Positions 2,764 to 57,829 of a DNA stretch of 64,000 nt are shown piece after piece (position 1 is the stretch's first letter; every line of letters begins with the position of its first letter). Made by a program: the position numbers and the translations under genes. The notes under the pieces are model-generated. The model had not been told where the DNA came from. It was given only the letters and a program-made list of their open reading frames with translations, and made no database searches. The DNA is from Candidatus Parcubacteria bacterium (GTDB lineage Bacteria > Patescibacteriota > Minisyncoccia > Sungbacterales > SURF-37), in contig QZJO01000011.1 of assembly GCA_003599755.1 (NCBI GenBank), positions 66,424 through 130,423 of the forward strand, in the 5' to 3' direction.

Positions 2764-3093
2764 ATGAAGAAGGTGTGGCTGGTCGCCGCGGTTCTCGGGT
2801 GCGCTTCCCTATTCATGCTCATTCTGCTGCAGCTCTCGGTTCAGCCGGCCGCTGCCTACAGTCGATCGTTCGGCAGCGGGAGTTCCAGCTTCCGCGCCGA
2901 GTTCTCGGTGCGTAGCGGCGGCGGAGGTTCGTTCGGGCGGTCGTACGGGTACGGACGGACGTACGGCTATGACCGGCGGCATGGTTTTGCGCCGAACTGC
3001 CGGCCGTACTGGGTCCAGAGCTCGCTGTTCTTCAGCAACACGTTCGGCGTGTGGGTGTATCAACCCGGCAAGTGGGTGTTCATATGCCGGTGA
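2764..3093 (+). CDS. small secreted Gly/Ser/Tyr/Arg-rich protein with signal peptide
   Basis: MKKVWLVAAVLGCASLFMLILLQL signal-like N-terminus; AAGGAGG RBS; followed by a hairpin terminator. Confidence 0.55.
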   Translation: MKKVWLVAAVLGCASLFMLILLQLSVQPAAAYSRSFGSGSSSFRAEFSVRSGGGGSFGRSYGYGRTYGYDRRHGFAPNCRPYWVQSSLFFSNTFGVWVYQPGKWVFICR

Positions 3094-44941: not shown

Positions 44942-45841
44942 CTACCTCACGTTCACCCACGCCATGCCCCGATCCGCGCTCTTGTAGATGGCGTTCTTGT
45001 TCGTTAGCGCATAAACAACGTCCGGTTCGGTCTTGCTGAACGCAAGATACAGGACGGTTCCGCCGGCAAAGGTTTCGTTCACTTTCTCCCACGAAACGCC
45101 GCCGTCGGCGCTTTTGCCGAGCCCGCCGAGGCGTTCGGAGAACGCAAGCGCGTAGTCATTGTCCTGCGGATGGGACGCAAAGACGCTTACCGCCCCGCCC
45201 GAAAGTTCTTCGGAAAGGTTTGCCCATGCATCGCCCTTGTCCTTGCTGATTTGTACGCCGTTTTGAGTTGCGGCATAGAGGGTATGTTTATCCGTATGAT
45301 CGACCGAGAGCGAGTACGGGGCAATTGAGCCACGCGCATATTCCCATGATCTGCCGCCATCCTGGCTTCTTTGGAGTTTACCGCCGAAAAATCCATAGAT
45401 GACATCTGGATTTGCCGCGCTCACCGCCATGGCATGGAAGTCCACCGGACCGCCGAGTCCTGCGGATATGCGTTCCCACGAGAGGCCGCCGTCCGTCGTT
45501 TTTTGAAGGCCGATATTGCCGCCGCGTGCGGGATGCCCGCTACTGAAGAACACGTTTGCTTCCGTCGGATGCGAATTGAAACCCATCAAGTCGTCGCGCG
45601 TCTCGCCGATGCGATAGAGGTCTTTGTCGTCCTTGAGGAGATATAACCCCTCGTGCGTGGCGATGTAGACCTTGCTCGCGTCCGTGACATCAACCGCAAT
45701 CCCGTGCGAATGGCTGAACGATGATACGGGAATAAGCGGTTCGCCGCCGCGGGCCGCGCCGGGGGCGTCTTCCTTAACCAGGAGAAAGCCGAGCGCGAGC
45801 AGGAGGATGGCGCCCCCCGCGATTAGATAGTTTTTCTGCAT
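44942..45841 (-). CDS. secreted BNR/Asp-box repeat beta-propeller protein (Ycf48/sialidase-like fold)
   Basis: Signal peptide; repeated S/TxDGGxSW boxes (TTDGGLSW, SQDGGRSW, SKDKGDAW, SADGGVSW). Confidence 0.65.
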   Translation of the reverse strand: MQKNYLIAGGAILLLALGFLLVKEDAPGAARGGEPLIPVSSFSHSHGIAVDVTDASKVYIATHEGLYLLKDDKDLYRIGETRDDLMGFNSHPTEANVFFSSGHPARGGNIGLQKTTDGGLSWERISAGLGGPVDFHAMAVSAANPDVIYGFFGGKLQRSQDGGRSWEYARGSIAPYSLSVDHTDKHTLYAATQNGVQISKDKGDAWANLSEELSGGAVSVFASHPQDNDYALAFSERLGGLGKSADGGVSWEKVNETFAGGTVLYLAFSKTEPDVVYALTNKNAIYKSADRGMAWVNVR

Positions 45842-45858
45842 AAAGTTTACTCGTTAAA

Positions 45859-46218
45859 TCAATTTCGGCGCCACTGCCGCATCATATCGATCTCGTTCGC
45901 CTGCGCGGCGATGATGTCGTTGGCGAGTTTGATGAATTCGGGGCGCTTCGTGCCGGCAAGAAGCGTGCGCGCCATTTCAACCGCGCCTTCGTGATGTACG
46001 ATCATCCCGTCGAGGAAGGCTCGTTCCAGGGCCGCTCCCGTTCTGCCGTCGAGGTCCGCCATCATCCCGCTCATCGCGCCATGCATGCCGCTCGGGATAC
46101 TCGCGGACGGATACGGCACGTTCTTCGCGGCTGCCGTCGTGCCCGCAACGTATCCGATGACGAGGCCGAGAATGAGGGTCAGCAAGCCGATGACCAAACC
46201 GTTGTTGATAGGTTCCAT
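45859..46218 (-). CDS. DUF305 family protein (single repeat), membrane-anchored
   Basis: LDGMIVHHEGAVEMA motif; TM N-terminus. Confidence 0.65.
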   Translation of the reverse strand: MEPINNGLVIGLLTLILGLVIGYVAGTTAAAKNVPYPSASIPSGMHGAMSGMMADLDGRTGAALERAFLDGMIVHHEGAVEMARTLLAGTKRPEFIKLANDIIAAQANEIDMMRQWRRN

Positions 46219-46258
46219 AAGTCGTTGTTGTTATGGGCGGATACAGAATGCAACAACG

Positions 46259-46648
46259 CTACGGCGCGCGCGGACTGGTTGCGGTCTCCAGAAGGAGCGT
46301 GGAAAAAAGCGAATCACGTAAAAATCCTTCGGGAACGAATATGCGCGGCCGAGGCGGATCAGGCGGGTCGCAGGTGCGGCGCAAAAACAGGCGTGCAGCG
46401 GCAAATGCGAGAAGCGCTAAAACGGGTATCCCCGGCGGTATCGCGGTCATCAGTGCTTGCCACAAGGAGATGTGTTCAAACGCGGGCATCGTACATATCG
46501 CTTTTTCCCCAAACATAAACGGACAATTGATCATCGGCGCCCCGTCGTGAGCCATGCCCATCACCCCGACAGGCAATACGAGCATCGGGCCGATGCATAC
46601 CGCGAGCGCGACAATCGAGACAGACGATTTTATGAGCGTATGTTCCAT
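46259..46648 (-). CDS. hypothetical membrane protein, possibly degenerate
   Basis: Hydrophobic N-terminus but odd Pro/Asp-rich C-terminus; lies at the GC transition before the lower-GC block. Confidence 0.3.
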   Translation of the reverse strand: MEHTLIKSSVSIVALAVCIGPMLVLPVGVMGMAHDGAPMINCPFMFGEKAICTMPAFEHISLWQALMTAIPPGIPVLALLAFAAARLFLRRTCDPPDPPRPRIFVPEGFLRDSLFSTLLLETATSPRAP

Positions 46649-46755
46649 AGTAGGGTCGGCAGCATCAGGGCACGAACCATGCAACTCAGCAGTAAAGCGA
46701 AGTTCGCTTTATGGTAAGCAGCGAGCCGCGGCATTTACCCCGCACCAATTCCTTT

Positions 46756-46962
46756 CTCCGAAAGCGAGACGACGTTCGAACCTTAACGATCAAATTAGTC
46801 CGCGACGTTTATGAAAGCATACGCGAGTTCGGTCTCGCGCTCAATCTGCCGAAGTTCGCTTTTGTTCCGGGTCGACGTGACGACGCCTCGCGGTGGCGTC
46901 CCTCTCAATTTATGAATTCAGAGCAGGCCGCCAAGTGGGAGAAACCGGCCGCATGAGGCCGG
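46756..46962 (+). repeat. 207-bp direct repeat, copy 1 (about 97% identical to copy 2)
   Basis: ctccgaaagcgagacgacgttcgaacc...gagaaaccggccgcatgaggccgg repeated at 48864..49070; contains several short hairpins. Confidence 0.85.
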
Positions 46963-47067
46963 GTCGCATGGCTCTTGACGAGATAACATATAAGTGCTTT
47001 TGTTATTTGGCTCCTCCCAATCAGCTCTTCTCGATCACTTGATAAATCGCGCATTCAGGAGGGGCTC

Positions 47068-47319
47068 GTGTCAGCTCATAACGAGAGACAGCTAGACTCA
47101 GAGTCGCATCATGACCTTCACATGAAGTTGGTCGCGGCTATCCAGGAGGCGCAAGAGGAAGCTTCCCGCGCGTGGGAAAAATGGGAGGCTGAACTCCGTG
47201 ATTGGCACCTCGAGAATCCTGGGAGGCGCACGCGGCGTGGTGTGCATGGGAGGCGGAGATGGAAACGGAAAGGAGGAGGGGATGATGCAAATCAGCATCT
47301 ACCAACATCACGGAGGTGA
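47068..47319 (+). CDS. hypothetical small helical protein (GTG start)
   Basis: AGGAGGGG RBS before GTG 47068; overlaps the next gene by 38 nt in a different frame. Confidence 0.35.
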   Translation: MSAHNERQLDSESHHDLHMKLVAAIQEAQEEASRAWEKWEAELRDWHLENPGRRTRRGVHGRRRWKRKGGGDDANQHLPTSRR

Positions 47320-47641
47320 CTTCAAGGTCGCCTGGACCGACGGCGATGGAGGAGAGCGCCACTTCATGTACGATCTGGGCGGGGCCATCAGCTTTGCCCT
47401 CGGACTGAAGATCGGCGCGCTCGCGCGAGGCGAGGAGGCCGAACTCATCGTCAACGTCCGACATCCGGCGATGAATCGGGGCTTCCGCGACGGATTCCTG
47501 ATGGGTCGTGGCGACCCAACCGGACAGGAGTGGCTGTTTGCCGGCGGTTATACTGCCGATAGACGCTCTCCGCCGGACGATGGACGCTACGCAGCTCATC
47601 TGCCGTTCATGCGCGAGCGACTGGCGGAGTTCCTCCGCTAG
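47282..47641 (+). CDS. hypothetical protein (119 aa)
   Basis: AAAGGAGGAGGGG RBS before ATGATG 47282; no family match. Confidence 0.45.
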   Translation: MMQISIYQHHGGDFKVAWTDGDGGERHFMYDLGGAISFALGLKIGALARGEEAELIVNVRHPAMNRGFRDGFLMGRGDPTGQEWLFAGGYTADRRSPPDDGRYAAHLPFMRERLAEFLR

Positions 47642-47777
47642 CACTCGGGTCACTTCACCGGACCTTACTCGGTGGACGCGACGATTGGCTGCGCAATGCC
47701 GATCATCACAGGCACCGATGCATAGAGAGCATCGGGCCTTTTGTTTTCGCTCAATCGGTGATGTACGGCATAACTAA

Positions 47778-48608
47778 TTAGATACCGAGCAGCTGAACGA
47801 TGACGCTTGGCTTCCAGACCTGCCCTAAATTTGATAGTTCGCTTAACTCCTCATCTTGGACCCGACCAGAGTATATACCCATGAATTTCGTTCGCGGTGG
47901 TACACCAAGCTGGAAACCCTCTGACGAATGAATGAGACCCGATCTATATGCGATCACAGGAGAACCCGACATACCTTTTTTTGTTGACGCGTCAATTAGA
48001 AAGATTGGCCTCTTCGCATAGTCGATATCGATATCCGAGGCGACGTGACCCGTCTTCCAAATTGGAAATTTACCAAAAGCCGATTGATTGTACGGGAATC
48101 CGATTATTGAAACGGGATCCGATGGCAAGATTATAAGATCTGTATTCGCAAGGGTGATATCCAGTGGGTGCACATCGATATCGTTCGTGACCTCGATCGG
48201 TAGAGCGATGACATCTGCTTTTCCATCTGCCGTGTCTATCTCCTTCCACGTGAGTTTGCCATTTCCATCTTGTAGGGAAACATCCTTCGGAATCCATTTA
48301 CCGAGCAAGTCTTTTCGGTGATGCCAGATTCGAATCGTGTTAGGTATTGCAGCTAGCCCCGAAAGTGGATTATCTGTTTTAGGATCTCGTCCAGATACGA
48401 CATGCCAGTTCGTTATCAAGAAATGCTCTCCATCTCTGGCAACAATAAATCCGGTACCGGAGCCCAGTTGTTGGGCATTAAAAAAGATTTCCAGATGGAG
48501 CGAAATTGCCGTAAGGGGATGCACGATTGGCATAGTTGTTTCTCGAAGATATTGCGGCCAGGACATGGCCTGAGTCATCGTTATGTTCGAACCTCTAATT
48601 CTTCGCAT
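47778..48608 (-). CDS. trypsin-like (S1/chymotrypsin-fold) serine peptidase
   Basis: GSGTGFIV...HFLITNWHVV (His), D, and TKKGMSGSPV (Ser) catalytic triad context; about 48% GC vs about 65% flanks; start 48608/48578/48533 uncertain. Confidence 0.7.
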   Translation of the reverse strand: MRRIRGSNITMTQAMSWPQYLRETTMPIVHPLTAISLHLEIFFNAQQLGSGTGFIVARDGEHFLITNWHVVSGRDPKTDNPLSGLAAIPNTIRIWHHRKDLLGKWIPKDVSLQDGNGKLTWKEIDTADGKADVIALPIEVTNDIDVHPLDITLANTDLIILPSDPVSIIGFPYNQSAFGKFPIWKTGHVASDIDIDYAKRPIFLIDASTKKGMSGSPVIAYRSGLIHSSEGFQLGVPPRTKFMGIYSGRVQDEELSELSNLGQVWKPSVIVQLLGI

Positions 48609-48863
48609 CAAACCGATTCAATTTTGAACTTTTGGCCTTCCATTTTTGACAATGCTCGGGCGGCAGGATCCCGGCGCTCTGCGCCTAGAACCGTCGCGGC
48701 ACGCGCACTGCATGCGCTAACGCCGCTCTTTGAAACCTTGCGGTTTCAATACTTCCACCACGGGGAAACTCCCGTTTCCCCGACCTCCCTTCTCTGGTTC
48801 GAATCCTACGCGCCTCGTGCATCAAAATCAAAACCCCTCGCAAGGAGAGGTTTTGATTTCGAA

Positions 48864-49070
48864 CTCCGAAAGCGAGACGACGTTCGAACCTTAACGATCA
48901 AATTAGTCCGCGACGTTTATGAAAGCATACGCGAGTTCGGTCTCGCGCTCAATCTGCCGACGTTCGCTTTTGTTCCGGGTCGCCGTGACGACGCCTCGCG
49001 GTGGCGTCCTTCTCACATTATGAATTCGGAGCAGGCCGCCAAGTGGGAGAAACCGGCCGCATGAGGCCGG
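48864..49070 (+). repeat. 207-bp direct repeat, copy 2
   Basis: See copy 1; the two copies bracket the 1.9-kb protease cassette. Confidence 0.85.
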
Positions 49071-49120
49071 TCCGCGTTCGAGCGTTTCATGGTAGAAGCT
49101 AGATAACGAATCAGCAGTAG

Positions 49121-51004
49121 CTATTCGCCCATCTCTCCGAGGAAGCGGGATCTCTCCTTTCCAACGATCCTTCCACCATGCCGATGCGTTTCTCTGCCTG
49201 TTCGCTGAGAGGCCCATGACATCAGTAACGACTGTTTCGAGCGGGTAACCGAGACGAAGAAAAGGCGCCGGCGCTCCTCGATGTTCGGCATCTCCCCCGG
49301 CATGAGATCGTCCTCCAGCGCGGGAATAAAAACGATTGGCGCCTCGAGGCCTTTGGCGCTGTGCATGGTAAGAATCCGTACCTTATCCGGGAGTTCCGCA
49401 TCCTTTCCCTCGAGCTTGCCAGCTTCTCGCTCCTGCTCGAAATTCTGCAGGAGCTCGCTTAGTTTCATCACATTCTCCTTCCCCGCCTGCCTTGCAAAGT
49501 ATTCCTGTGCGATCCCTATTCCCTTATCATCAGCGCATTGTGGTGCATCTCGGATAATGGTCGGGATGATTGTTTCGAAATTCCTTTCAGCAGCACGTTC
49601 GGACATCTTCCGATGAAATTCTCCTACGAGACGTCGGTGCCGAATATCGGGATAGCGACTGGGGTCCTTTGCGACATTTTGAGTTGCCGCCCAAAGTGAC
49701 TGCCCGTTTGCCTGAGCCAGATCACGAAGATGTTTAATGGTCTCTGCCCCAATGCCATCGTGCGCGCCAAGACATTGGCGTGCAGCCAGATTATCTGACT
49801 GATCAGCCAGGAGTCCGAGTACCGCGAGGAGTTGAGCGAAACATTCAGAGTCGAATGGACCAGCTATTCTCAATTGAACATCGGTCGGAATATTGGCTAC
49901 CCGAAGCGCTGAGATGTAATCATCCGCAACTCCACCATCGCCAAAGAGAATCATCATCTCACGGTACTGAGCGCCACGTTCGTGAAGTTCCTCGACCTTA
50001 GCGACCAGCCATTGGATTTCTGCTTTTTTGCTTCGCAACCAGAAGGTTGCGACTGTGCCCCCATTCTGCGCGGCAACAAGGTTGGCCTTTCCTGGAATTC
50101 TTATCCTGTTGTTGCGAATCAAGGCATTTGCTTTATCGATTATGGCGGACGGGCAGCGATGGCATTTTGTTAGAAGGAGCGTCGTGGTGCCAGCGACGCG
50201 GTCGTGGAAATCAACCAGTCCATTGGGTCGAGCGAAGCGCTGGGTCTCATAGATGCTTTGGTCCTCATCGCCCACTACACAAAGACCACGAGGGTTACCT
50301 ATCAGAAGACGTACCAGCTCTTGATCGCTATGATTCAGGTCCTGGTATTCATCGACGAGTAGATAATGAATCCTCGCCTGCTCTCTTTCGCGAATGTTGG
50401 GATGGGCTTCAAAGATGCGCAACACAGCGTGAACAACTCGAAACCAATCGACACCACCATAGAATCCCTGAATCGCCTCGTACGCTTCGGTGAACCTATG
50501 ATAGGTCTCCGTTGCTTGGGGGCTCCTGCGAATCCAGTTCGGGATACCAGCGCCGCTCAATTCGGCCCTGTACGCGTTTAGATATGTTTTTATATTGCCC
50601 TGTCCTCTGAAAGGCAGTCGTAGACCGATCGCATTTAGATCGACCATCACATCTTGGATAAGGATTCTTGTTTCATGCTCACTTAAGGGTCGAACCGTTT
50701 GTTTCATTCCAACTAGGTCAGCGTGCTGTTTTAGAATCCCCATCGCTTTCGAGTGAAGCGTCCGGACATCAGGCATTCGATCCGGAGCGATGCCCTCGCG
50801 TTCGAGACGCTGCCGCATCTCTTTCGCCGCCGCACGCGTAAACGTCACCGCGAGCATCGTTTTTGGATCAATTTTGTCCTTAGTGAGCAGATCAACTATT
50901 CGAGCGACCAGACACATGGTCTTTCCAGTTCCAGGACCAGCAACAACGCGGAGAGGGCTATCCCTGTGATCCACGACTTGCTGCTGCTCGTCGCTCAGAT
51001 TCAT
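49121..51004 (-). CDS. UvrD/PcrA-like superfamily-1 DNA helicase (627 aa, lower GC)
   Basis: Motif I AGPGTGKT, motif II LLVDEYQD, motif V TMHSAKGLE, motif VI VSVTRSK. Confidence 0.8.
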   Translation of the reverse strand: MNLSDEQQQVVDHRDSPLRVVAGPGTGKTMCLVARIVDLLTKDKIDPKTMLAVTFTRAAAKEMRQRLEREGIAPDRMPDVRTLHSKAMGILKQHADLVGMKQTVRPLSEHETRILIQDVMVDLNAIGLRLPFRGQGNIKTYLNAYRAELSGAGIPNWIRRSPQATETYHRFTEAYEAIQGFYGGVDWFRVVHAVLRIFEAHPNIREREQARIHYLLVDEYQDLNHSDQELVRLLIGNPRGLCVVGDEDQSIYETQRFARPNGLVDFHDRVAGTTTLLLTKCHRCPSAIIDKANALIRNNRIRIPGKANLVAAQNGGTVATFWLRSKKAEIQWLVAKVEELHERGAQYREMMILFGDGGVADDYISALRVANIPTDVQLRIAGPFDSECFAQLLAVLGLLADQSDNLAARQCLGAHDGIGAETIKHLRDLAQANGQSLWAATQNVAKDPSRYPDIRHRRLVGEFHRKMSERAAERNFETIIPTIIRDAPQCADDKGIGIAQEYFARQAGKENVMKLSELLQNFEQEREAGKLEGKDAELPDKVRILTMHSAKGLEAPIVFIPALEDDLMPGEMPNIEERRRLFFVSVTRSKQSLLMSWASQRTGRETHRHGGRIVGKERSRFLGEMGE

Positions 51005-51209
51005 AATCCCGGATATGTTCGAACTTTTCTTTGAGAGGTCATGCGATTACTTTAAAACGTTGTTGTTTCTGGGTGTTTAGGACATAACCTCTCCGGAGTA
51101 TCGCCGCCTCAGAAACCGGCCTACTTCGGCCGGTTTCTCCGTCTAGTCGCCATCCTGCGGGGTCGTAAAGTGAGCACAGGTTCGATCAGAACTGCCGGCT
51201 CCTTGCGAA

Positions 51210-51401
51210 ATGAACATGAACGAAACCGCAGGGTATCGAGCGTTCCAGGCACGCGTCCGTGCCTGGGGCGATCTCTTCGCATCAATGGGTCTCCCCATGA
51301 AGGCGGACGATGTCGAGACTGTCGCGACGTATGCAGCGGCAATCGAAGAAGTGATTCGGAAAAGTCGTCGGAATTCGCGTAAGCGTATTAGTCGAAAGTA
51401 G
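51210..51401 (+). CDS. possible small helical protein (63 aa) next to tRNA
   Basis: ORF only; no RBS; speculative. Confidence 0.15.
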   Translation: MNMNETAGYRAFQARVRAWGDLFASMGLPMKADDVETVATYAAAIEEVIRKSRRNSRKRISRK

Positions 51402-51514
51402 CTAGATAACTGCGGGGACGTCGGCGAGAGGATCGAACCGTGGGGATGAGTCCAGGTTCGAATCCCACGCCTGGGTGAGGTTGAAACGCGCGCATTTATG
51501 CGCAAAATGACCGA

Positions 51515-51586
51515 CTCCGGCGGCAGGATTCGAACCTGCGACCATCTCGTTAACAGCGAGCCGCTCTACCACTGAGCTACGCCGGA
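51515..51586 (-). tRNA. tRNA-Asn (anticodon GUU)
   Basis: Cloverleaf readable on minus strand: acceptor TCCGGCG/CGCCGGA, D-arm GCTC-AGTGGTA-GAGC, anticodon stem-loop GCTCG-CTGTTAA-CGAGA, T-arm GCAGG-TTCGAAT-CCTGC; CCA not encoded. Confidence 0.7.
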
Positions 51587-51589
51587 ATA
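51569..51589. repeat. 21-bp direct repeat ccactgagctacgccggaata (copy A, overlaps tRNA 5-prime end)
   Basis: Identical 21-mer recurs at about 51871..51891, bracketing the GIY-YIG ORF. Confidence 0.6.
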
Positions 51590-51825
51590 AGGTTATGCTT
51601 TCGAATGTACTTTCTGCCTGCTGCACTCTTCAGATATCGCTCACGTTCTCGCGCTTCCTCAATCGTATTGCATTCTTCTGTATATATCACTTTCCACGGA
51701 GCATACCGGCTAGAGAAGGTTCCTTGCCCATTATTATGCTCATGAAGTCTGCGGTCTAGATCCGTAGTGCTGCCGGTATATGTCTTTTTCGCCGTTTTAC
51801 TTTTGAGGATGTACACTATCGCCAT
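51577..51825 (-). CDS. GIY-YIG nuclease family small protein
   Basis: IVYILKSKTAKKTYTGSTTDLDRRLHEHNNG...WKVIYTEECNTIEEARERERYLK; 3-prime end overlaps the tRNA-Asn 5-prime end. Confidence 0.65.
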   Translation of the reverse strand: MAIVYILKSKTAKKTYTGSTTDLDRRLHEHNNGQGTFSSRYAPWKVIYTEECNTIEEARERERYLKSAAGRKYIRKHNLIPA

Positions 51826-51870
51826 ACCGCTCTACCCGCCTCGCGTCGACTCGCCGCGAGTCGAGGCGGG

Positions 51871-51891
51871 CCACTGAGCTACGCCGGAATA
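51871..51891. repeat. 21-bp direct repeat copy B (tRNA-Asn 5-prime fragment) preceded by a GC hairpin
   Basis: ccactgagctacgccggaata preceded by gtcgactcgccgcgagtcgag palindrome; approximate coordinates. Confidence 0.55.
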
Positions 51892-51996
51892 TGTATCCGC
51901 CCCTTTAATAAGAACTTCCATCTGAAATCTCCGCGGGCCGCTGAGCTTCCGATGTGCGACTGAACATCGCAAGGATACGCCAAAATCGATCAGAAA

Positions 51997-52892: not shown

Positions 52893-54218
52893 CTAGATCT
52901 CGCACGAGACCGATACCTCCTCGTCGATGCAGGTGTCGGTTCCCCCGCCGCCGTGTACGGTATCCGTGCCCGGGCCGCCGTCGAGGAGATCGTCCCCGTT
53001 GCCGCCCTGCAGCTGGTCATTGCCGTCTTCGCCGTAGAGCTCATCGTCGTCATTGCTGCCGGTCGCGTTGTCATTTCCGCCGCCGAGGCGGATGACGTCA
53101 TTCCCGTTTCCGCCGCTGACCGTGTCATTGCCGCTGCCGGTCACGATTTCGTCATTCCCGTTTCCACCGGAAACCGTGTTGTTTCCTTCGCCGCCGAAAA
53201 TATCATCGTCCCCATTACCGCCCGTAATAACGTCATCGCCGTTGCCGCCGTAGATCGTGTCATTCCCCGCGCCGGCATTTACTTCGTCGTTGCCATCGCC
53301 CAAATCAATCCAGTCATCGCCGTCGCCGGTCTGGACTTCGTCGTTGCCGCCGTAGGCATACACGGTCGCGGGGCCATCGGATTGGATGATGAGGTCGCGG
53401 CCGGGCGTTCCGCAGATGATGTCGGTTCCATCCTCGGCTTTGGCCATGTCCGTGCCATTGCCGTCGTACATGACGATCACGTCATCAACGCCGTCGAACG
53501 CGCGCAAGATCCCGTTATAAGAGCTTCCGTCATCGCGGCCGCCGTGGATGATTTCGTTGGCATCCACCCAAATGGTCGCCGGGTGGCCCTCGCAAAACGG
53601 CGCATCGGTCGGGACGCTCTGGACCTCCACTACTAAATCGCAGCCGAACGTTTCGCCGGCAAGCGCGGGATCGAGCTGGTATTCGGACGCGACGCCCGAA
53701 TCCTGGGAGCACTGTCCCATGAAGCAGGGCACATGCAAGTCAATAATCCATTGATCCGCGGTGTCGCTTTCGGATTTCGCGAGCGTTCCGACGGCGATGC
53801 TGGAGGTTGCACTCGGATCATGGAATGCGGGCACGCCGGTGTCGTTGGCCGGCGCGTTGTCCGGGGTTTTGGAAAGATACGGGCAGAGCGACCGATAACA
53901 GCGGGCATAGTCGGTCGGGTTTTCCCGGCAATACGCGCGTTCCTCTTCGCTGTCGGTGCGGGGCTTGGGCCGCTGGACGATGCGATATTCGACTTCATCG
54001 AGGTTCGGGTTGGCGATGAACGCCGATGAAAGGTCGATGTTGATGGGCTCGAGATGCACTTCGCCCGGAAATACGGTCGAGAACGAAATGATATTGGGCG
54101 TGACGGAGAGGTTCGCGTTGATGGTGACGTGGTTTGCGCTGACGCCAAGCGTGCCGAACGCGGCAATTGCCAAAAAGCCGGCCGCAGCTACAAGCAGGCG
54201 CACGACGTATGAATTCAT
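52893..54218 (-). CDS. secreted protein: SipW-cognate-like signal plus conserved ~230-aa N-domain plus C-terminal RTX-type Ca-binding nonapeptide repeats
   Basis: N-domain shares VEYRIVQRPKP...CFMGQCSQD...FGCDLVVEV blocks with the 58526, 60375 and 61756 paralogs; C-terminus GGNGNDxIxGGxGND repeats. Confidence 0.65.
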   Translation of the reverse strand: MNSYVVRLLVAAAGFLAIAAFGTLGVSANHVTINANLSVTPNIISFSTVFPGEVHLEPINIDLSSAFIANPNLDEVEYRIVQRPKPRTDSEEERAYCRENPTDYARCYRSLCPYLSKTPDNAPANDTGVPAFHDPSATSSIAVGTLAKSESDTADQWIIDLHVPCFMGQCSQDSGVASEYQLDPALAGETFGCDLVVEVQSVPTDAPFCEGHPATIWVDANEIIHGGRDDGSSYNGILRAFDGVDDVIVMYDGNGTDMAKAEDGTDIICGTPGRDLIIQSDGPATVYAYGGNDEVQTGDGDDWIDLGDGNDEVNAGAGNDTIYGGNGDDVITGGNGDDDIFGGEGNNTVSGGNGNDEIVTGSGNDTVSGGNGNDVIRLGGGNDNATGSNDDDELYGEDGNDQLQGGNGDDLLDGGPGTDTVHGGGGTDTCIDEEVSVSCEI

Positions 54219-54235
54219 TCCCGGAATATGACTAG

Positions 54236-57025
54236 TCATTCCGTTGCTGGCGCATCAGACGGCGGAGGGGTCGGAACTGGCTCGGGAACAGGTGCTTCGG
54301 GCGAGGGGTCGGCTGGAGCCGGATCCATCGGCGGAGGCGGAGCTTCGGCAGGATCAGGCACCGGCGCTTCGGCCGGCTCTTCGGGCTCAGCCACGGGCGT
54401 CTCCGATGGCGTCTCCGTAGTCGAGGAATCGGGCGTGGCATCAGATTGTTCTTCCGGCGTCGGAGCAGGGGTCTGGGCTGCTGGTTCCGGCTCGCTGCTC
54501 GCCTCCGGTTCATCAGCAACCCCGCCATCTACCGCGGGCTCCTCGGAAGCGTCAGTATTCGTCGCTTGTGAGTCATTTTCGTCTGCCGGCGCGGCCGGAT
54601 CTTCGTCTGCAGGCGCGCTTTCGCTTGCGGGCGCAGGGGTTTCAATGGCTTCCTCTTCGGGTTCCGGCTCCGGCCGGCGGACTTCTAACGGCAGCGGTTC
54701 TTCCACGGGGATATCAACCGCATCCACGAGTACGGGCTGTACGATGGTAGTCAGTTTTTCGCCGCTGGGCTGGAACGGCGTCTGCCACGGCTGCATGACT
54801 TCGAGCGGCCGGTAGAAATAATTGTTGGCAGCGCCCGGCGTCGGGTCGGGGTCCACCCAGTTGGCCGCGCCATCCGGAATGCGCGCGAACGATTTGTTCT
54901 CGGGCGCATCCTGGGTGTAGGCGTGGCTGTCGATCAACAAGCCGCCCGCGCCGATTTCATTCGAGAACAGGCGCACGGTGTCGCCGCCGGTATTTTCCAG
55001 TTCAAAATCGTCGTCCCCGTCGCGGTAGACCACGAGGAATCCGTGCGATGGGATGATCGTGCTGCCGGTATCGGTGATCGCGCCCGAGATCACGAGCTCG
55101 TTGTCGTTCGAGCTGTCGTAGAGCACGTAGCCCGCCACGTCCACGCTGAAGCCCGTGGGATTGAAGAGCTCCACCCATTCGCCGTCGAGCGCCCCGCCGC
55201 CCGTTCCCTGGTCGTCCCCGGTGGGGTTGGGGACGAATTCGTTGATCAATACATGGGTTGTCGAATCATACGGCTGCACTTCGCCGCAAGCGATTTGGTT
55301 GGGCAGGGCGCGGTAGTTGACCGTCACGCCCGAATCGAAGCGGATCGCGGTATTGGCATCCAGATCGTTGCCGGTTCCGGCTTTCGCGAACGCGGCCAAA
55401 AGCGTCCGGCTGCCGTTGATGTGAATGTCGCCTTCGGACGCGAAGAGCACGGCCTCGCCGATATCCGACGCATCGGCCGCGGCCTCGATGGCCGCGTCGT
55501 CGCCGGTAATCGCGCCGCTTGTGGATACGAGCAAGATCGCGCCGACGACGCCCGAGCCCGAAAAGCTTGCGCCCGCGGCGATATCGATCGCGCCGTCCAC
55601 GATGATGGTTACGAAACTGTCGCCGAATGCCGGGTCCTGGGCAATGACGGTGTTGGAACCGATCGCGAGATTGCCGTGGATGTAGAGCGGCCCGTCGATG
55701 ACGGCGCTGTTGTTCGCGCCGAACTCCACGTTGCCCATGATTTCGGCCGGTCCGAGCTCGAGGCCGACGGTATTGTCCGGGAAGATGAGATGGCCGTTGA
55801 TAGTGCCGCCGTCTTGCGCGCGGGCTTTCCAGAAAGGAATAGAAATATTCGGAAGCGTCGTAGCCGGGATATTCGTAAGCGTCGTACCGGACACGGTGAT
55901 GCTCGGATCAATCGTGTTCTTGGCAAACGCGCTGCCGTTGATTTCGCGGCCGGATCCCCCGCCGAACGCTTCGATCTCATCGTTGGAGCGGACGTTGCCG
56001 TTGACTACCACGCTCGGGCCGAACGTTACGTCATCGTTGCCGTTGGTCACGCCGGCCGCCTGCACCGCGAGTTGATCCGGAAACGCGGCGAAATTTGCCG
56101 CGCAGGCAAAGCCGGTGTCGAAGTTCAAAAAGTCCACGACTTCGGTCTCGATGTCGTCGATCGTCACCGCGACGCTTTCGGGCGTGAGGTGCTGCCAGCC
56201 GATGCGCGTTTCCTCTTTGACGATATAACCGGCCGGGTCGAGGCCCGTGAATTGGTAGTAGCCGTTGGCGTCGGTGACCGTAACGGCGATCACGTCGAGT
56301 GTATCGCCATCGAGCAATTGGATCTGCCAGCCCTCGACGCCGAAGTCGCCCGGCGTAAAGGATTCGGACTGGTCGAGGTCATGGTATTTGTAGCCCTGGA
56401 TTTTTCCCTTGGTCTGGGCAAAGTCGTAAATCTCGGTCGTGATCAAACTCTCGTGCGCGCCGGGCAGGCCGGAGTCGCAGGCAATGGCTTTGACCACCGC
56501 GTCGTCCGAAAGCGGAATGGGCCCCACGGGTTTGGGTCCGCCGGCCGAGATGCCGCAGACCGGATCGGGCGCGATGTTCGGGTCCAGCCCCGGGGTGACC
56601 GTATAAAACACATGCGTGGCGTCCGGATCGTCGTCATCAATCGTGAGATTGATCGGGTCGGTGTAATTGCCGCCCGGCGGCGTGATGACCGGCGGCTCGA
56701 TCATGATGATCGTCGCGGTGACGTTGACCACGTGGCCCTCGAACGCCGTGATAAGCGGCAGCGAGGCCACGCTCAGGGCGACCGCGATCGCGGTCAGGCG
56801 CGTGAAGGTCTTGCGGCTCGAGAGCCGCCGCTGCACCCGTTGCAGCATCCGCGCCACCGGAGAGATCCGCCGCGGTATGATCACGGCCGGAGTGCTCGTC
56901 TTCGCAGTGAGGTTGATGACGTAGCGGCTCAACGGCGCAGTCCGCTTGCGCTGGACACGCGTAACACCGCCTTTGGCAAGGCGTTTTATTTCGGAAATTT
57001 GTTTCTTCGAGCGGGATTCGTTCAT
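54236..57025 (-). CDS. large secreted surface protein: SipW-cognate-like signal, Cna-B/SdrD-B-like domain, beta-helix (bactofilin-like) region, lamin-tail domain, acidic Pro/Glu-rich C-terminus
   Basis: LPLITAFEGHVVNVTATI signal-processing region as in paralogs; GYKYHDLD...DANGYYQF Cna-B-like; HVLINEFVPNPTGDD...GEWVELFNPTG LTD; start 57025 vs 56848 uncertain. Confidence 0.65.
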   Translation of the reverse strand: MNESRSKKQISEIKRLAKGGVTRVQRKRTAPLSRYVINLTAKTSTPAVIIPRRISPVARMLQRVQRRLSSRKTFTRLTAIAVALSVASLPLITAFEGHVVNVTATIIMIEPPVITPPGGNYTDPINLTIDDDDPDATHVFYTVTPGLDPNIAPDPVCGISAGGPKPVGPIPLSDDAVVKAIACDSGLPGAHESLITTEIYDFAQTKGKIQGYKYHDLDQSESFTPGDFGVEGWQIQLLDGDTLDVIAVTVTDANGYYQFTGLDPAGYIVKEETRIGWQHLTPESVAVTIDDIETEVVDFLNFDTGFACAANFAAFPDQLAVQAAGVTNGNDDVTFGPSVVVNGNVRSNDEIEAFGGGSGREINGSAFAKNTIDPSITVSGTTLTNIPATTLPNISIPFWKARAQDGGTINGHLIFPDNTVGLELGPAEIMGNVEFGANNSAVIDGPLYIHGNLAIGSNTVIAQDPAFGDSFVTIIVDGAIDIAAGASFSGSGVVGAILLVSTSGAITGDDAAIEAAADASDIGEAVLFASEGDIHINGSRTLLAAFAKAGTGNDLDANTAIRFDSGVTVNYRALPNQIACGEVQPYDSTTHVLINEFVPNPTGDDQGTGGGALDGEWVELFNPTGFSVDVAGYVLYDSSNDNELVISGAITDTGSTIIPSHGFLVVYRDGDDDFELENTGGDTVRLFSNEIGAGGLLIDSHAYTQDAPENKSFARIPDGAANWVDPDPTPGAANNYFYRPLEVMQPWQTPFQPSGEKLTTIVQPVLVDAVDIPVEEPLPLEVRRPEPEPEEEAIETPAPASESAPADEDPAAPADENDSQATNTDASEEPAVDGGVADEPEASSEPEPAAQTPAPTPEEQSDATPDSSTTETPSETPVAEPEEPAEAPVPDPAEAPPPPMDPAPADPSPEAPVPEPVPTPPPSDAPATE

Positions 57026-57057
57026 GTGAGTCGAGTCCCCGGCCCGGTTGTAGAATT

Positions 57058-57318
57058 TCAGCTGGCGCGCCGCTTGAACAAATAGTCCTTCAGCCGACGC
57101 TTCAGCAGTCTGCGACCGTGCGTTGTTTTGAGATGTTTCTCTCTGCGGCGCGCATCGGAGCCTTCGAGCATGGCCTCGTAGTAGATGCAGCGCCACTGGC
57201 TTCTCTTGGTGGAGAAATTCTTCCCGCTGTTGTGTTCGGCGAGTCGCTTTCGGAGATCAACGGTATATCCGATGTAATGCTCTCCGCTTGGGTTCTCGAG
57301 AACGTAGACGTAGAACAC
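57058..57318 (-). CDS. GIY-YIG nuclease family small protein (GTG start proposed)
   Basis: FYVYVLENPSGEHYIGYTVDLRKRLAEHNSG...WRCIYYEA...RRREKHLK; placed 11 nt downstream of the signal-peptidase gene stop. Confidence 0.55.
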   Translation of the reverse strand: MFYVYVLENPSGEHYIGYTVDLRKRLAEHNSGKNFSTKRSQWRCIYYEAMLEGSDARRREKHLKTTHGRRLLKRRLKDYLFKRRAS

Positions 57319-57328
57319 AGCTGAAATT

Positions 57329-57829
57329 TCACAACCGGGAGGCCCAGATCGAGATGTAACCGATGTACGGTATGCGAAACGGTTGTTCGGGGCGGAATTC
57401 CACCGCTTCCCCGACCACGTCTTCATAGGTGACGGGCGGGTCCTCGGAAAAATTCGCGTCCCCTTTCGTGACTAGCGTCGTCGCGTTGGTTCGCACCACC
57501 CGGTGGATGGTGAAGCCCTCGGCGTTCCGCCAGACCACGATGTCGCCCTCGGCGATGTCGGGTTTGGACACCGCGCGAATCAAAATCATGTCCCCGGTTT
57601 TGAGCGCGGGCCACATGGAGCCGGACGTGATCGCGGCAATGGGAACGTCGGTCCCGAATTTCCAGATCAGGAATTTGGGCACGCCCCAGAGAATGCCAAC
57701 GACGATCGCGGCGTAGATCGCCACGTTCAAGACGATTTTGAGAACGGTGCGGGTCACAGCCACAGGCGTGCAGGCATCGCGCTCAGAGCACCGAGCCGTC
57801 GGGAGCGAGGCCGCGCCGATACGTGTCAT
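57329..57829 (-). CDS. signal peptidase I, SipW-type (S26B, archaeal/eukaryal-like)
   Basis: SGSMWP catalytic Ser motif and FTIHRVV His motif; N-terminal TM; start possibly at internal GTG 57757. Confidence 0.7.
   Translation of the reverse strand: MTRIGAASLPTARCSERDACTPVAVTRTVLKIVLNVAIYAAIVVGILWGVPKFLIWKFGTDVPIAAITSGSMWPALKTGDMILIRAVSKPDIAEGDIVVWRNAEGFTIHRVVRTNATTLVTKGDANFSEDPPVTYEDVVGEAVEFRPEQPFRIPYIGYISIWASRL

Follow-up and report, generated by a model that had tools for sequence, protein, structure and literature searches.

The mini-element described here occupies about 300 bp in the 5' part of a tRNA-Asn gene, within a 64,000-nucleotide stretch of Candidatus Parcubacteria bacterium (contig QZJO01000011.1 of assembly GCA_003599755.1, positions 66,424 to 130,423), which we refer to as the window. 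It comprises a gene for an 82-amino-acid (aa) GIY-YIG nuclease, a duplicated segment of the tRNA, and a GC-rich palindrome that interrupts one copy of that segment. We infer from its architecture and its distribution across genomes that it represents a minimal Slx1-like, tRNA-gene-targeting, putatively mobile selfish element. A first-pass annotation, made from the sequence alone, had listed it as a mini-cassette within a low-GC block that ends at the tRNA; the structure is real, but it was undervalued there, as it is the truly unusual piece of the interval. We consider it fairly probable that the interval holds three unrelated things, namely, variable cargo, a conserved spacer, and the tRNA-lodged mini-element. 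Our wider proposal, to which we give somewhat less than an even chance, is that Slx1-like GIY-YIG proteins of 75 to 82 aa and CCCGCC...GGCGGG palindromes together define an unrecognized class of ~300-bp mobile elements, widespread in Patescibacteria, Bacteroidota, and other phyla. Such elements would be structure guided and would regenerate the tRNA, borrow its promoter and its U8-A9-G10 stop, and spawn derivatives that lack the open reading frame (ORF).

The intact tRNA-Asn(GTT) occupies 51515..51586 of the minus strand (51513/51587 in an alternate call); it was called by ARAGORN and matches Rfam RF00005 over its full length with 71.4 bits. Its 3' end faces the block, as had been described. 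The nuclease gene (51577..51825, minus strand) matches Pfam PF01541 at 1e-18, with the domain at residues 2-72. Its last 10 nucleotides (nt) overlap the tRNA, whose own U8-A9-G10 serves as the stop codon. The earlier description of this ORF as bracketed by 21-bp repeats of the tRNA 5' end is correct: an exact 21-nt repeat (blastn E = 1.7e-6) is present at 51569-51589 and 51871-51891 on the minus strand. The first ~18 nt of the intact tRNA-Asn constitute the downstream copy of the duplicated segment, and the upstream copy (51871..51891, minus strand) is a relic of the tRNA-Asn 5' end that runs from position -3 to the GG of the D-loop. In the D-loop of this relic is a 36-nt GC-rich palindrome (51835..51870; CCCGCCTCGACTCGCGGCGAGTCGACGCGAGGCGGG on the minus strand), after which the relic continues as TAGAGCGG plus 1 nt up to the ATG (51826..51834, minus strand). 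The continuation corresponds to tRNA positions 20-27 in standard numbering (19-26 sequentially), and the same layout was seen in loci L021 and L032. Read along the minus strand, the order is TAT-TCCGGCGTAGCTCAGTGG / CCCGCCTCGACTCGCGGCGAGTCGACGCGAGGCGGG / TAGAGCGG-T-ATG (82 codons) CTTAT-TCCGGCGTAG, followed by the intact tRNA. Thus, tRNA positions 1-26 are present twice, with the 36-nt palindrome dividing the upstream copy after the GG of the D-loop. With a single occurrence of its motif in the window, the palindrome is no genome-wide repeat here. Neither it nor the relic is covered by any Rfam family. Intron_gpI has no match in 46.0-52.5 kb at E <= 1, and the tRNA-Asn is uninterrupted.

The protein is a catalytic domain only, of the Slx1/UPF0213-like type, without a separate DNA-binding domain. 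The nearest solved chains are those of the UPF0213 proteins 1zg2 (E = 8e-9) and 1ywl (2.5e-7), followed by SLX1, and 21 GIY-YIG sequences show little or no variation at residues Y5, Y16, G18, R26, H30, and E62. It is 57-62% identical to proteins of Patescibacteria, although the GC content of the host is 60%. The only close relative compared is encoded on a 1089-bp contig of the European Nucleotide Archive (L003), where the GIY-YIG protein is 90-91% identical; the ratio of nonsynonymous to synonymous substitution rates (dN/dS) between the two is 0.13, indicating purifying selection.

A second small GIY-YIG gene occurs in the window at 57058-57318 on the minus strand. It encodes 86 aa from a GTG start, is 38% identical to the tRNA-linked protein, and has a native-like GC content at third codon positions (GC3) of 0.71. 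The gene sits between an S24-peptidase gene and an LTD-domain gene, with no tRNA nearby, and is bracketed by a 22-nt inverted repeat (CCCGGTTGTGAAATTTCAGCTG / CAGCTGAAATTCTACAACCGGG, 57041-57062 and 57319-57340), such that it forms the loop of a large palindrome.

Association with tRNA genes recurs among the relatives of the protein. An indexed search returned 19 GIY-YIG homologs, the named ones all from Patescibacteria, and the ORF adjoins tRNA-Asn in all three of the first neighborhoods. A scan of Genome Taxonomy Database (GTDB) species representatives with a profile of eight sequences yielded 568 relatives, and the locus counts that follow derive from the best 80. These are from Patescibacteria, Bacteroidota, some metagenome-assembled genomes (MAGs) labeled 'Gammaproteobacteria,' KSB1, and Ignavibacteria-type genomes. 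Carriers available in culture include Flagellimonas nanhaiensis and Aequorivita sinensis (L047 and L077). A same-strand tRNA gene lies no more than 150 nt downstream of the ORF in 53 of the 80, usually starting at -6 to +36 nt. Allowing up to 600 nt raises the count to 57 (Asn, 20; Gln, 11; Arg, 11; Leu, 10; the rest Ala, Met, Ser, and Thr). In 13 of the 80, the arrangement is the opposite one, with a same-strand tRNA (Glu, Leu, Asp, or Arg) that ends no more than 150 nt before the ORF. By our own estimate, tRNA adjacency is expected by chance in about 0.1-0.3% of cases. Two apparent exceptions were explained, one by a tRNA-Asn with a group I intron and one by a tRNA missed by ARAGORN.

The relic and the palindrome recur as well. 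A relic of the tRNA 5' end was found upstream of the ORF in 50 loci, ending after position 7 in 17 of them, after 9-11 in 8, and after 16-23 in 25, and CCCGCC... directly follows the relic in about 45 of the 50. The palindrome has the pattern CCCGCC...GGCGGG with asymmetric arms, and its arm motif (CCCGCCTCGACTCG / CGAGTCGAGGCGGG) was found in 45 of 48 loci no farther than 170 nt upstream of the ORF; its orientation is ambiguous when two mismatches are allowed. In at least 16 loci, the tRNA sequence resumes beyond the palindrome where it had broken off, the first 8 nt there being the same as those that come next in the intact tRNA (nearly so in 3 of 16); the palindrome has therefore been inserted precisely into a tRNA copy that is otherwise contiguous. 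The bases on its 5' side vary (GG, ATA, CTA, AGC, and TCG). The same order of parts was seen in dozens of genomes, the tRNA genes concerned being those for Asn, Gln, Leu, Arg, Ala, Met, and Thr. Loci in which the ORF follows the tRNA show its mirror image: an intact tRNA, a terminator, the ORF, and then a 3' relic with a CCCTGCC...GGCAGGG palindrome in the T-loop. This version was found at Glu, Leu, Asp, and Arg tRNA genes.

Protein lineages track the tRNA that they accompany. Nearest-neighbor proteins share their tRNA target in 48 of 69 cases, compared to 17% by chance, and all 23 Asn-linked proteins do so. Diverged elements also stand in tandem at a single tRNA, in L004 as well as in L040 and L033. 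In viral contigs, only five relatives of the GIY-YIG protein were found.

Several loci show further arrangements of these parts. In L004 (617-1318), two tandem GIY-YIG units, with proteins 68% and 45% identical to that of the window, lie upstream of one tRNA-Asn, and a 5' fragment of tRNA-Asn and a palindrome stand before each ORF. Over 26 nt, the inner relic is identical to the tRNA; beyond its palindrome follows a piece that is similar to the anticodon arm of the tRNA but diverged from it, as if it had been brought in from another genome. Units that lack the ORF were seen in L031 (2426-2990) and L055 (2778-2964), each with a duplicated 5' part of tRNA-Leu and a short palindrome in the D-loop; in the L055 unit, a 24-nt native leader is duplicated too. 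L031 also has two tandem tRNA-Leu 3' relics, the T-loops of which each contain a palindromic insert about 120 nt long. Tandem arrays of three palindrome copies are present in L014 (about 2890-3000) and L037 (about 2680-2800), and one relic in L032 (about 2890-2990) has palindromes at both the 7/8 position and the D-loop. In L008 (3248-3540), from a member of the Minisyncoccia, a tRNA-Asn has a GIY-YIG unit upstream and, in addition, an anticodon loop interrupted by a group I intron (Intron_gpI, 55.6 bits), and it was because of this intron that ARAGORN missed the tRNA. Group I introns of such a kind were recently reported in Patescibacteria (PMC13011429), and L008 fits that report. On one viral contig (L174, 1289-1596), the GIY-YIG relative adjoins a tRNA-Arg(ACG) that lies 9 nt downstream, near the end of the locus.

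These features suggest how such an element might spread. The nuclease would break or nick a naive tRNA gene, the DNA of which can form a cloverleaf, at one of its single-stranded loops or junctions (7/8, the D-loop, or the T-loop), and recombinational repair from an occupied copy would then copy the element in. The duplicated tRNA segment that the element carries would restore an intact tRNA, so that the essential gene survives, and the native tRNA promoter would then drive the nuclease gene as well. By interrupting the leftover copy of the target, the palindrome may render that copy uncleavable, and it may also shorten the direct repeat through which the element could be deleted. We speculate that the target is recognized by its structure rather than by a long sequence, given the kinship with Slx1 and the loop and junction positions of the palindromes. 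An Slx1-like domain fused to a TrmH-type tRNA G18 methyltransferase has been reported (PMC1564403), a suggestive coincidence.

Five points weigh against this interpretation. The intact tRNA beside the element retains the presumed target, and self-immunity is not accounted for by the model. Where the palindrome is at 7/8, the homology on the left is 7-11 nt, which is short for RecA-type repair. The leader of L055 is duplicated along with the tRNA part, which is easier to explain by a local duplication than by the import of a homology arm. Folded by itself, the palindrome is not more stable than shuffled sequence (z = -1.4). Finally, no filled/empty pair of otherwise isogenic sites was found, either for the island or for the mini-element.

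Under a rival explanation, the GIY-YIG gene would be a domesticated, vertically inherited Slx1-like gene of repair or RNA metabolism that is cotranscribed with tRNAs, with the repeats being by-products of local duplication and the palindrome an independent repeat, similar to repetitive extragenic palindromic (REP) sequences or miniature inverted-repeat transposable elements (MITEs), that is moved by another enzyme. Vertical inheritance has been described as the main mode for prokaryotic Slx1-like proteins, minimal nucleases of which one is fused to a TrmH-like protein (PMC1564403), and the strong purifying selection and the existence of ORF-less units of palindrome plus duplication are both consistent with this explanation. 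So is the precise insertion without target duplication, which resembles, as is generally known, that of IS200/IS605 and REP hairpin elements. We nevertheless regard domestication as unlikely. A resident gene would not be expected to occur as tandem diverged copies at one tRNA, nor would the family be expected at 10 or more tRNA species, on the 5' or the 3' side, invariably accompanied by relic and palindrome. The identity to proteins of Patescibacteria noted above and the foreign GC3 of the gene in a 60% GC host also argue against it. An independently moving palindrome is difficult to reconcile with one that is unique in the 64-kb window and accompanies the ORF in nearly all of the loci in which it was sought.

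Alternatively, the mini-element could move as an excised circle made up of the tRNA 5' piece, the palindrome, the short tRNA piece, and the ORF, entering by a single crossover within roughly 7-22 nt of tRNA identity that is carried out by host recombination or an unlinked recombinase, with the nuclease only stimulating the event. Circularized ends would rebuild a palindrome-interrupted tRNA 5' half, a crossover in the 5' piece would yield the observed order, and the arrangement would be analogous to the attP of tRNA-integrating elements, which is established knowledge. Against this, no locus has a linked recombinase, the only ORF being that of 75-82 aa; the identity available for crossover is very short; and no circular junction was observed. 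We judge this route slightly less likely still than domestication.

If the elements spread by cleavage and repair, as we prefer to think, they would work most like free-standing homing endonuclease genes, while also resembling tRNA-integrating elements. Free-standing GIY-YIG homing endonuclease genes are known from phages, among them those of the T4 Seg proteins, with SegB in the T4 tRNA cluster (PMC2330249). The likeness lies in an intron- and intein-free GIY-YIG gene that is located at tRNA genes and is thought to spread by cleavage of a copy that lacks the gene, followed by repair. The differences are substantial. Proteins of the Seg/I-TevI type have 200-250 aa, a DNA-binding domain, and an ancestry in the UvrC/homing lineage, whereas the window protein has 82 aa, is catalytic only, and belongs with Slx1/UPF0213. 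The mini-element resides in bacterial chromosomes, with few relatives on viral contigs (the five mentioned above), and it has a duplicated tRNA segment and a conserved palindrome inside the tRNA 5' part, neither of which is described for Seg genes.

By size and by its set of Tyr, Tyr-x-Gly, Arg, His, and Glu residues, the protein resembles stand-alone UPF0213 proteins (BH0048, 1zg2; EF2693, 1ywl; the E. coli YhbQ class). The Slx1-like family has been treated as one of vertically inherited repair proteins, with selfish GIY-YIG genes ascribed to the UvrC lineage (PMC1564403). In contrast, genes of the window type show hallmarks of selfishness, namely, target duplication, tandem arrays, and lineages specific for a tRNA type.

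With tRNA-targeting phages and integrative and conjugative elements (ICEs), the mini-element shares insertion in a tRNA gene, a replacement segment that is carried along, and a partial tRNA copy at the far end. Those elements use tyrosine or serine integrases, are kilobases long, and almost always replace the 3' part of the tRNA, whereas the mini-element has ~300 bp, lacks a recombinase, and usually replaces the 5' part (D-arm). The hairpin-ended IS200/IS605 elements and the REP sequences with their associated tyrosine transposases (REP/RAYT; PMC3733652) similarly have a GC-rich palindrome, precise insertion, no target-site duplication, and sometimes arrays, but here the palindrome is found a single time in 64 kb and goes together with a GIY-YIG gene and pieces of tRNA. 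In the window and in the related loci, the element has no linked Y1/HUH transposase, and its insertion sites share no target tetranucleotide. Group I introns of tRNAs differ in that they have a ribozyme core within the tRNA, usually in the anticodon loop, and a true one was seen only in L008. In the literature searched, which left most subscription journals outside, small GIY-YIG elements residing within tRNA genes are not described, and the tRNA-gene element formed by nuclease and palindrome is apparently a widespread kind that has not been described.

The rest of the interval is of a different nature. For this part, gene calls of the Joint Genome Institute (JGI) were taken from contig 3300007352 Ga0104756_1000081 (L166), which matches the window with 0 mismatches at an offset of 37,281. 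The earlier annotation reported a drop in GC from about 65% to about 48-52%. The dip is real, but its values are 0.46-0.55, it begins at about 47.75 kb and extends to about 51.9 kb, and the surrounding background is 0.60-0.63. The figure of 65% is too high, since the GC of the window is 0.60 overall and 2-kb values are mostly 0.59-0.64. The leftmost part, 46.7-47.7 kb, is near background (0.55-0.61). A return to background immediately after the tRNA-Asn was not found, as GC recovers only past the GIY-YIG element, at about 51.9-52.0 kb. The foreign composition attributed to the block is nonetheless borne out, both by the dip and by GC3 contrasts: GC3 is 0.46 for the protease gene, 0.535 for the helicase gene, and 0.47 for the GIY-YIG gene, compared to 0.69-0.77 for native genes. 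An exception is the 119-aa ORF, which at 0.72 falls in the native range.

The geometry of the tRNA had been taken as that of classic tRNA-targeted integration. As the first-pass annotation itself noted, the block has no integrase: no integrase domain of the tyrosine or serine recombinase type, nor any remnant of one, was detected in any ORF of at least 50 aa, minor ORFs included. A search with the tRNA and its flanks (blastn-short) found no direct repeat of the tRNA 3' end in the window; the only repeat in direct orientation is that of the 5' end, and inverted T-loop matches of 12-13 nt to the tRNA have marginal scores. The integration model is thus not upheld. Candidate tmRNA or tRNA remnants at 48.79 and 51.45 kb were dropped, being only T-loop-like matches of 12-13 nt (E = 0.1-0.4) with no Rfam or ARAGORN call. 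Just past the 3' end of the tRNA-Asn, at 51420-51480, are T-arm-like fragments (GGATCGAACC and CAGGTTCGAATCC) that are kept in L003; they received no ARAGORN or Rfam call and may be remnants of older events at this tRNA.

Comparison with L003 divides the interval. The two sequences are collinear through the palindrome, the GIY-YIG gene, the tRNA-Asn, and a spacer of ~400 bp, to ~51,110, and past this point L003 is unrelated and has a different ORF in the place of the helicase. The tRNA-distal (helicase) side is therefore variable cargo. Its boundary, 400 bp from the tRNA, is a palindromic terminator-like hairpin (51111..51137; inverted repeats and motif scan) that coincides with the end of collinearity. 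The spacer contains a 63-aa ORF (51210..51401, plus strand, from the ORF list), the DNA of which is about 85-90% identical to L003 and which has no family match in Pfam, NCBIfam, or PHROGs. As to an island that is absent in relatives, the helicase side is variable with respect to L003, the one relative, but a true empty site was not recovered. A metagenome scan with the BNR protein of the left flank gave a best match of 64% identity, and synteny was limited to BNR-DUF305(-141 aa).

The left part of the cargo is bounded by two direct repeats. The first-pass annotation had described a 1.9-kb cassette between 207-bp direct repeats; the repeats do flank the protease segment, but their length is 212 nt. 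R1 (46756..46967) and R2 (48864..49075), both given for the plus strand, were found by repeat finding and blastn (97% over 207 nt); they are 96-97% identical and spaced 2108 nt. R1 ends in the hairpin GAAACCGGCCGCATGAGGCCGG. R2 lies in the 3' flank of the helicase gene, and its terminal hairpin is 46 nt past the helicase stop codon on the minus strand. The hairpin at 51111-51137 repeats the ends of R1 and R2 in part and in inverted orientation, and its position at the collinearity break hints at a recombination joint. Searches of Pfam, Rfam, and PHROGs gave no match to the repeats themselves, which may represent a recombination joint, a duplication of the 3' flank of the helicase gene, or a novel small RNA. 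A supposed third copy at 51.1 kb was rejected, as only about 25-60 nt around the hairpin match, and an integron-cassette reading of the repeated hairpins was dropped as well, there being no IntI and the 212-nt identity not being attC-like.

Two small ORFs follow R1. An 83-aa ORF (47068..47319, plus strand) has a Shine-Dalgarno-like AGGAGG upstream; it is uncalled by JGI, has no match in Pfam, PADLOC, NCBIfam, or PHROGs, and is a doubtful gene, as is an 81-aa ORF that is likewise uncalled and without a family match. The 119-aa orphan ORF (47282..47641, plus strand) has native-like codon composition, and an identical protein was called by JGI (P0121). A word-indexed search returned one homolog. 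An exhaustive HMMER scan of 1.84 billion representative proteins found seven small relatives, none with a Pfam domain. A terminator-like site (47715-47735) follows the ORF.

The gene beyond this site (47778..48578, minus strand; 277 aa if extended to 48611) encodes a trypsin-like serine protease of 266 aa from the ATG used by JGI (Pfam Trypsin_2, 1.5e-11). The His, Asp, and Ser motifs in its translation are TNWHV, ADVIAL, and GMSGSP, and there is no obvious signal peptide. The protein matches phrog_7688 at 1e-35 and PADLOC PDC-S45 at E = 5.5e-22 (76 bits, in two stretches of partial coverage, with no curated cutoff), as well as the PADLOC models RT-Protease_XI and LmuA. PDC-S45 is a candidate single-gene defense family, and we know of no functional test of it. 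More than 1100 relatives were found, of about 250 aa and all single domain. Their settings are diverse: between ribosomal-protein genes (L001/L002), beside a PIN gene on a Rhizobium plasmid (L167), beside an integrase and an AbiEii toxin gene on a Planococcus plasmid (L168), beside a Cas1-like gene and ribosomal genes in an archaeon (L169), and beside HicAB in Dehalococcoidia (L171-173). In these five independent neighborhoods, some of them seen on more than one contig, neither a UvrD-like helicase nor a 119-aa homolog adjoins the protease gene. Given that it stands alone in five contexts and matches PDC-S45 and phrog_7688, we interpret the protease as a solitary gene of mobile elements or defense islands. 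It is like members of those families in being a single-domain Trypsin_2 protein of about 250 aa that stands alone in accessory contexts, and it differs in that the profile match is partial and the gene is within a segment bounded by 212-nt repeats.

The helicase gene (49121..51004, minus strand) encodes 627 aa and is solitary, as previously stated; Pfam UvrD-helicase (4.4e-53) and UvrD_C (9.3e-30) confirm a UvrD/PcrA/Rep-like enzyme of superfamily 1A (SF1A). It could conceivably be the GajB half of a decayed Gabija system from which GajA was lost. The protein matches the PADLOC GajB model PDLC00114 over its full length (1.6e-71, 240 bits), and its setting is accessory and compositionally foreign. 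NCBIfam scores for PcrA, Rep, and UvrD (256, 253, and 248 bits, all far below the respective cutoffs) are equal to or above that for GajB, and the phage helicase family phrog_1967 scores 234 bits. The closest solved relative is UvrD 4c2u (190 bits), and at E <= 1e-10 every matching solved chain goes by the name UvrD, PcrA, Rep, UvrD1, UvrD/REP helicase, AddA, or 'DNA helicase,' with GajB not among them. No ORF, domain, or remnant of GajA, an OLD-family ATPase with a TOPRIM nuclease, was detected in 46.5-52.3 kb or in the 500 bp upstream of the helicase gene. Relatives on plasmids, with no more than 29% identity, are uninformative. The likeness to Gabija is thus the full-length match to GajB profiles; the differences are the missing GajA and a similarity to UvrD/PcrA/Rep that is as high as that to GajB. 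We consider a decayed Gabija system improbable, as the sequence comparisons fit a generic UvrD-like SF1A enzyme.

A low-GC block beside a tRNA, with a protease and a helicase, does resemble a defense system, and the first-pass annotation had proposed the protease, the 83- and 119-aa ORFs, and the helicase as one new antiphage or abortive-infection module integrated at tRNA-Asn. In favor of this are the position and composition of the block, the matches of the protease to PDC-S45, RT-Protease_XI, and LmuA and of the helicase to GajB models, and one contig (that of P0122, JGI 3300043331) on which a convergent gene lies 123 nt after the 119-aa homolog, in the same geometry as in the window. Comparison of neighborhoods, which the first-pass annotation had itself named as a test that could refute it, dissolves the supposed module into unrelated single genes. 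The protease relatives are alone in their five settings; the 119-aa ORF is an orphan whose family has only the seven members; the helicase is generic; there is neither an integrase nor an att or tRNA 3' repeat; and the genes are on opposite strands, parted by terminator-like sites and the 212-nt repeats, with GC3 values as different as 0.72, 0.46, and 0.535. For these reasons, we conclude that the four ORFs are not one system, and we regard the single-module explanation as very improbable. What remains of the defense association is that the protease and helicase families are seen in defense or mobile contexts (PDC-S45, GajB models, and phrog_7688).

The block is best described as a small, integrase-less, mosaic variable region. 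The variable cargo, at about 46.76-51.11 kb, would be a foreign stretch in a hotspot downstream of the tRNA-Asn. Most likely, the protease, presumably a cytoplasmic enzyme of the PDC-S45/phrog_7688 kind, and the helicase were acquired separately; if active at all, they may serve single-gene defense or mobile-element functions. The convergent gene on the P0122 contig, at the same spacing as in the window, leaves some room for a joint function of the protease and the 119-aa ORF.

On either side of the interval are genes with features of their own. To the left, genes for a BNR/Asp-box protein, a DUF305 protein, and a small membrane-like ORF form one unit (44942-46684, minus strand). This unit is kept, at 46-64% identity, on many groundwater and sediment metagenome contigs, the flanks of which are otherwise unrelated. 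Immediately to the right of the tRNA locus (52893-57025, minus strand) are genes for an RTX calcium-binding repeat protein and then a surface protein of 929-986 aa with SdrD_B/LTD domains. The region of the RTX protein gene contains DNA repeats with periods of 27 and 54 nt at 53038-53348.

If the mini-elements are what we propose, hundreds of small ORFs beside tRNAs that are annotated as 'GIY-YIG nuclease' or misnamed 'excinuclease ABC subunit C' would be explained, as would orphan 5' and 3' fragments of tRNAs in genomes. The Slx1-like branch, held to consist of vertically inherited repair enzymes, would have a selfish lifestyle too. Few known mobile elements that encode a protein would be smaller, and the elements would represent a second, recombinase-free way to inhabit an essential tRNA gene that stays functional. 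It would also have to be explained how a nuclease of 82 aa can tell tRNA genes apart with no DNA-binding domain to provide specificity. Finally, Patescibacteria have tiny genomes with single-copy tRNA genes, and since such elements are common there, they may affect tRNA expression and genome stability in these organisms.

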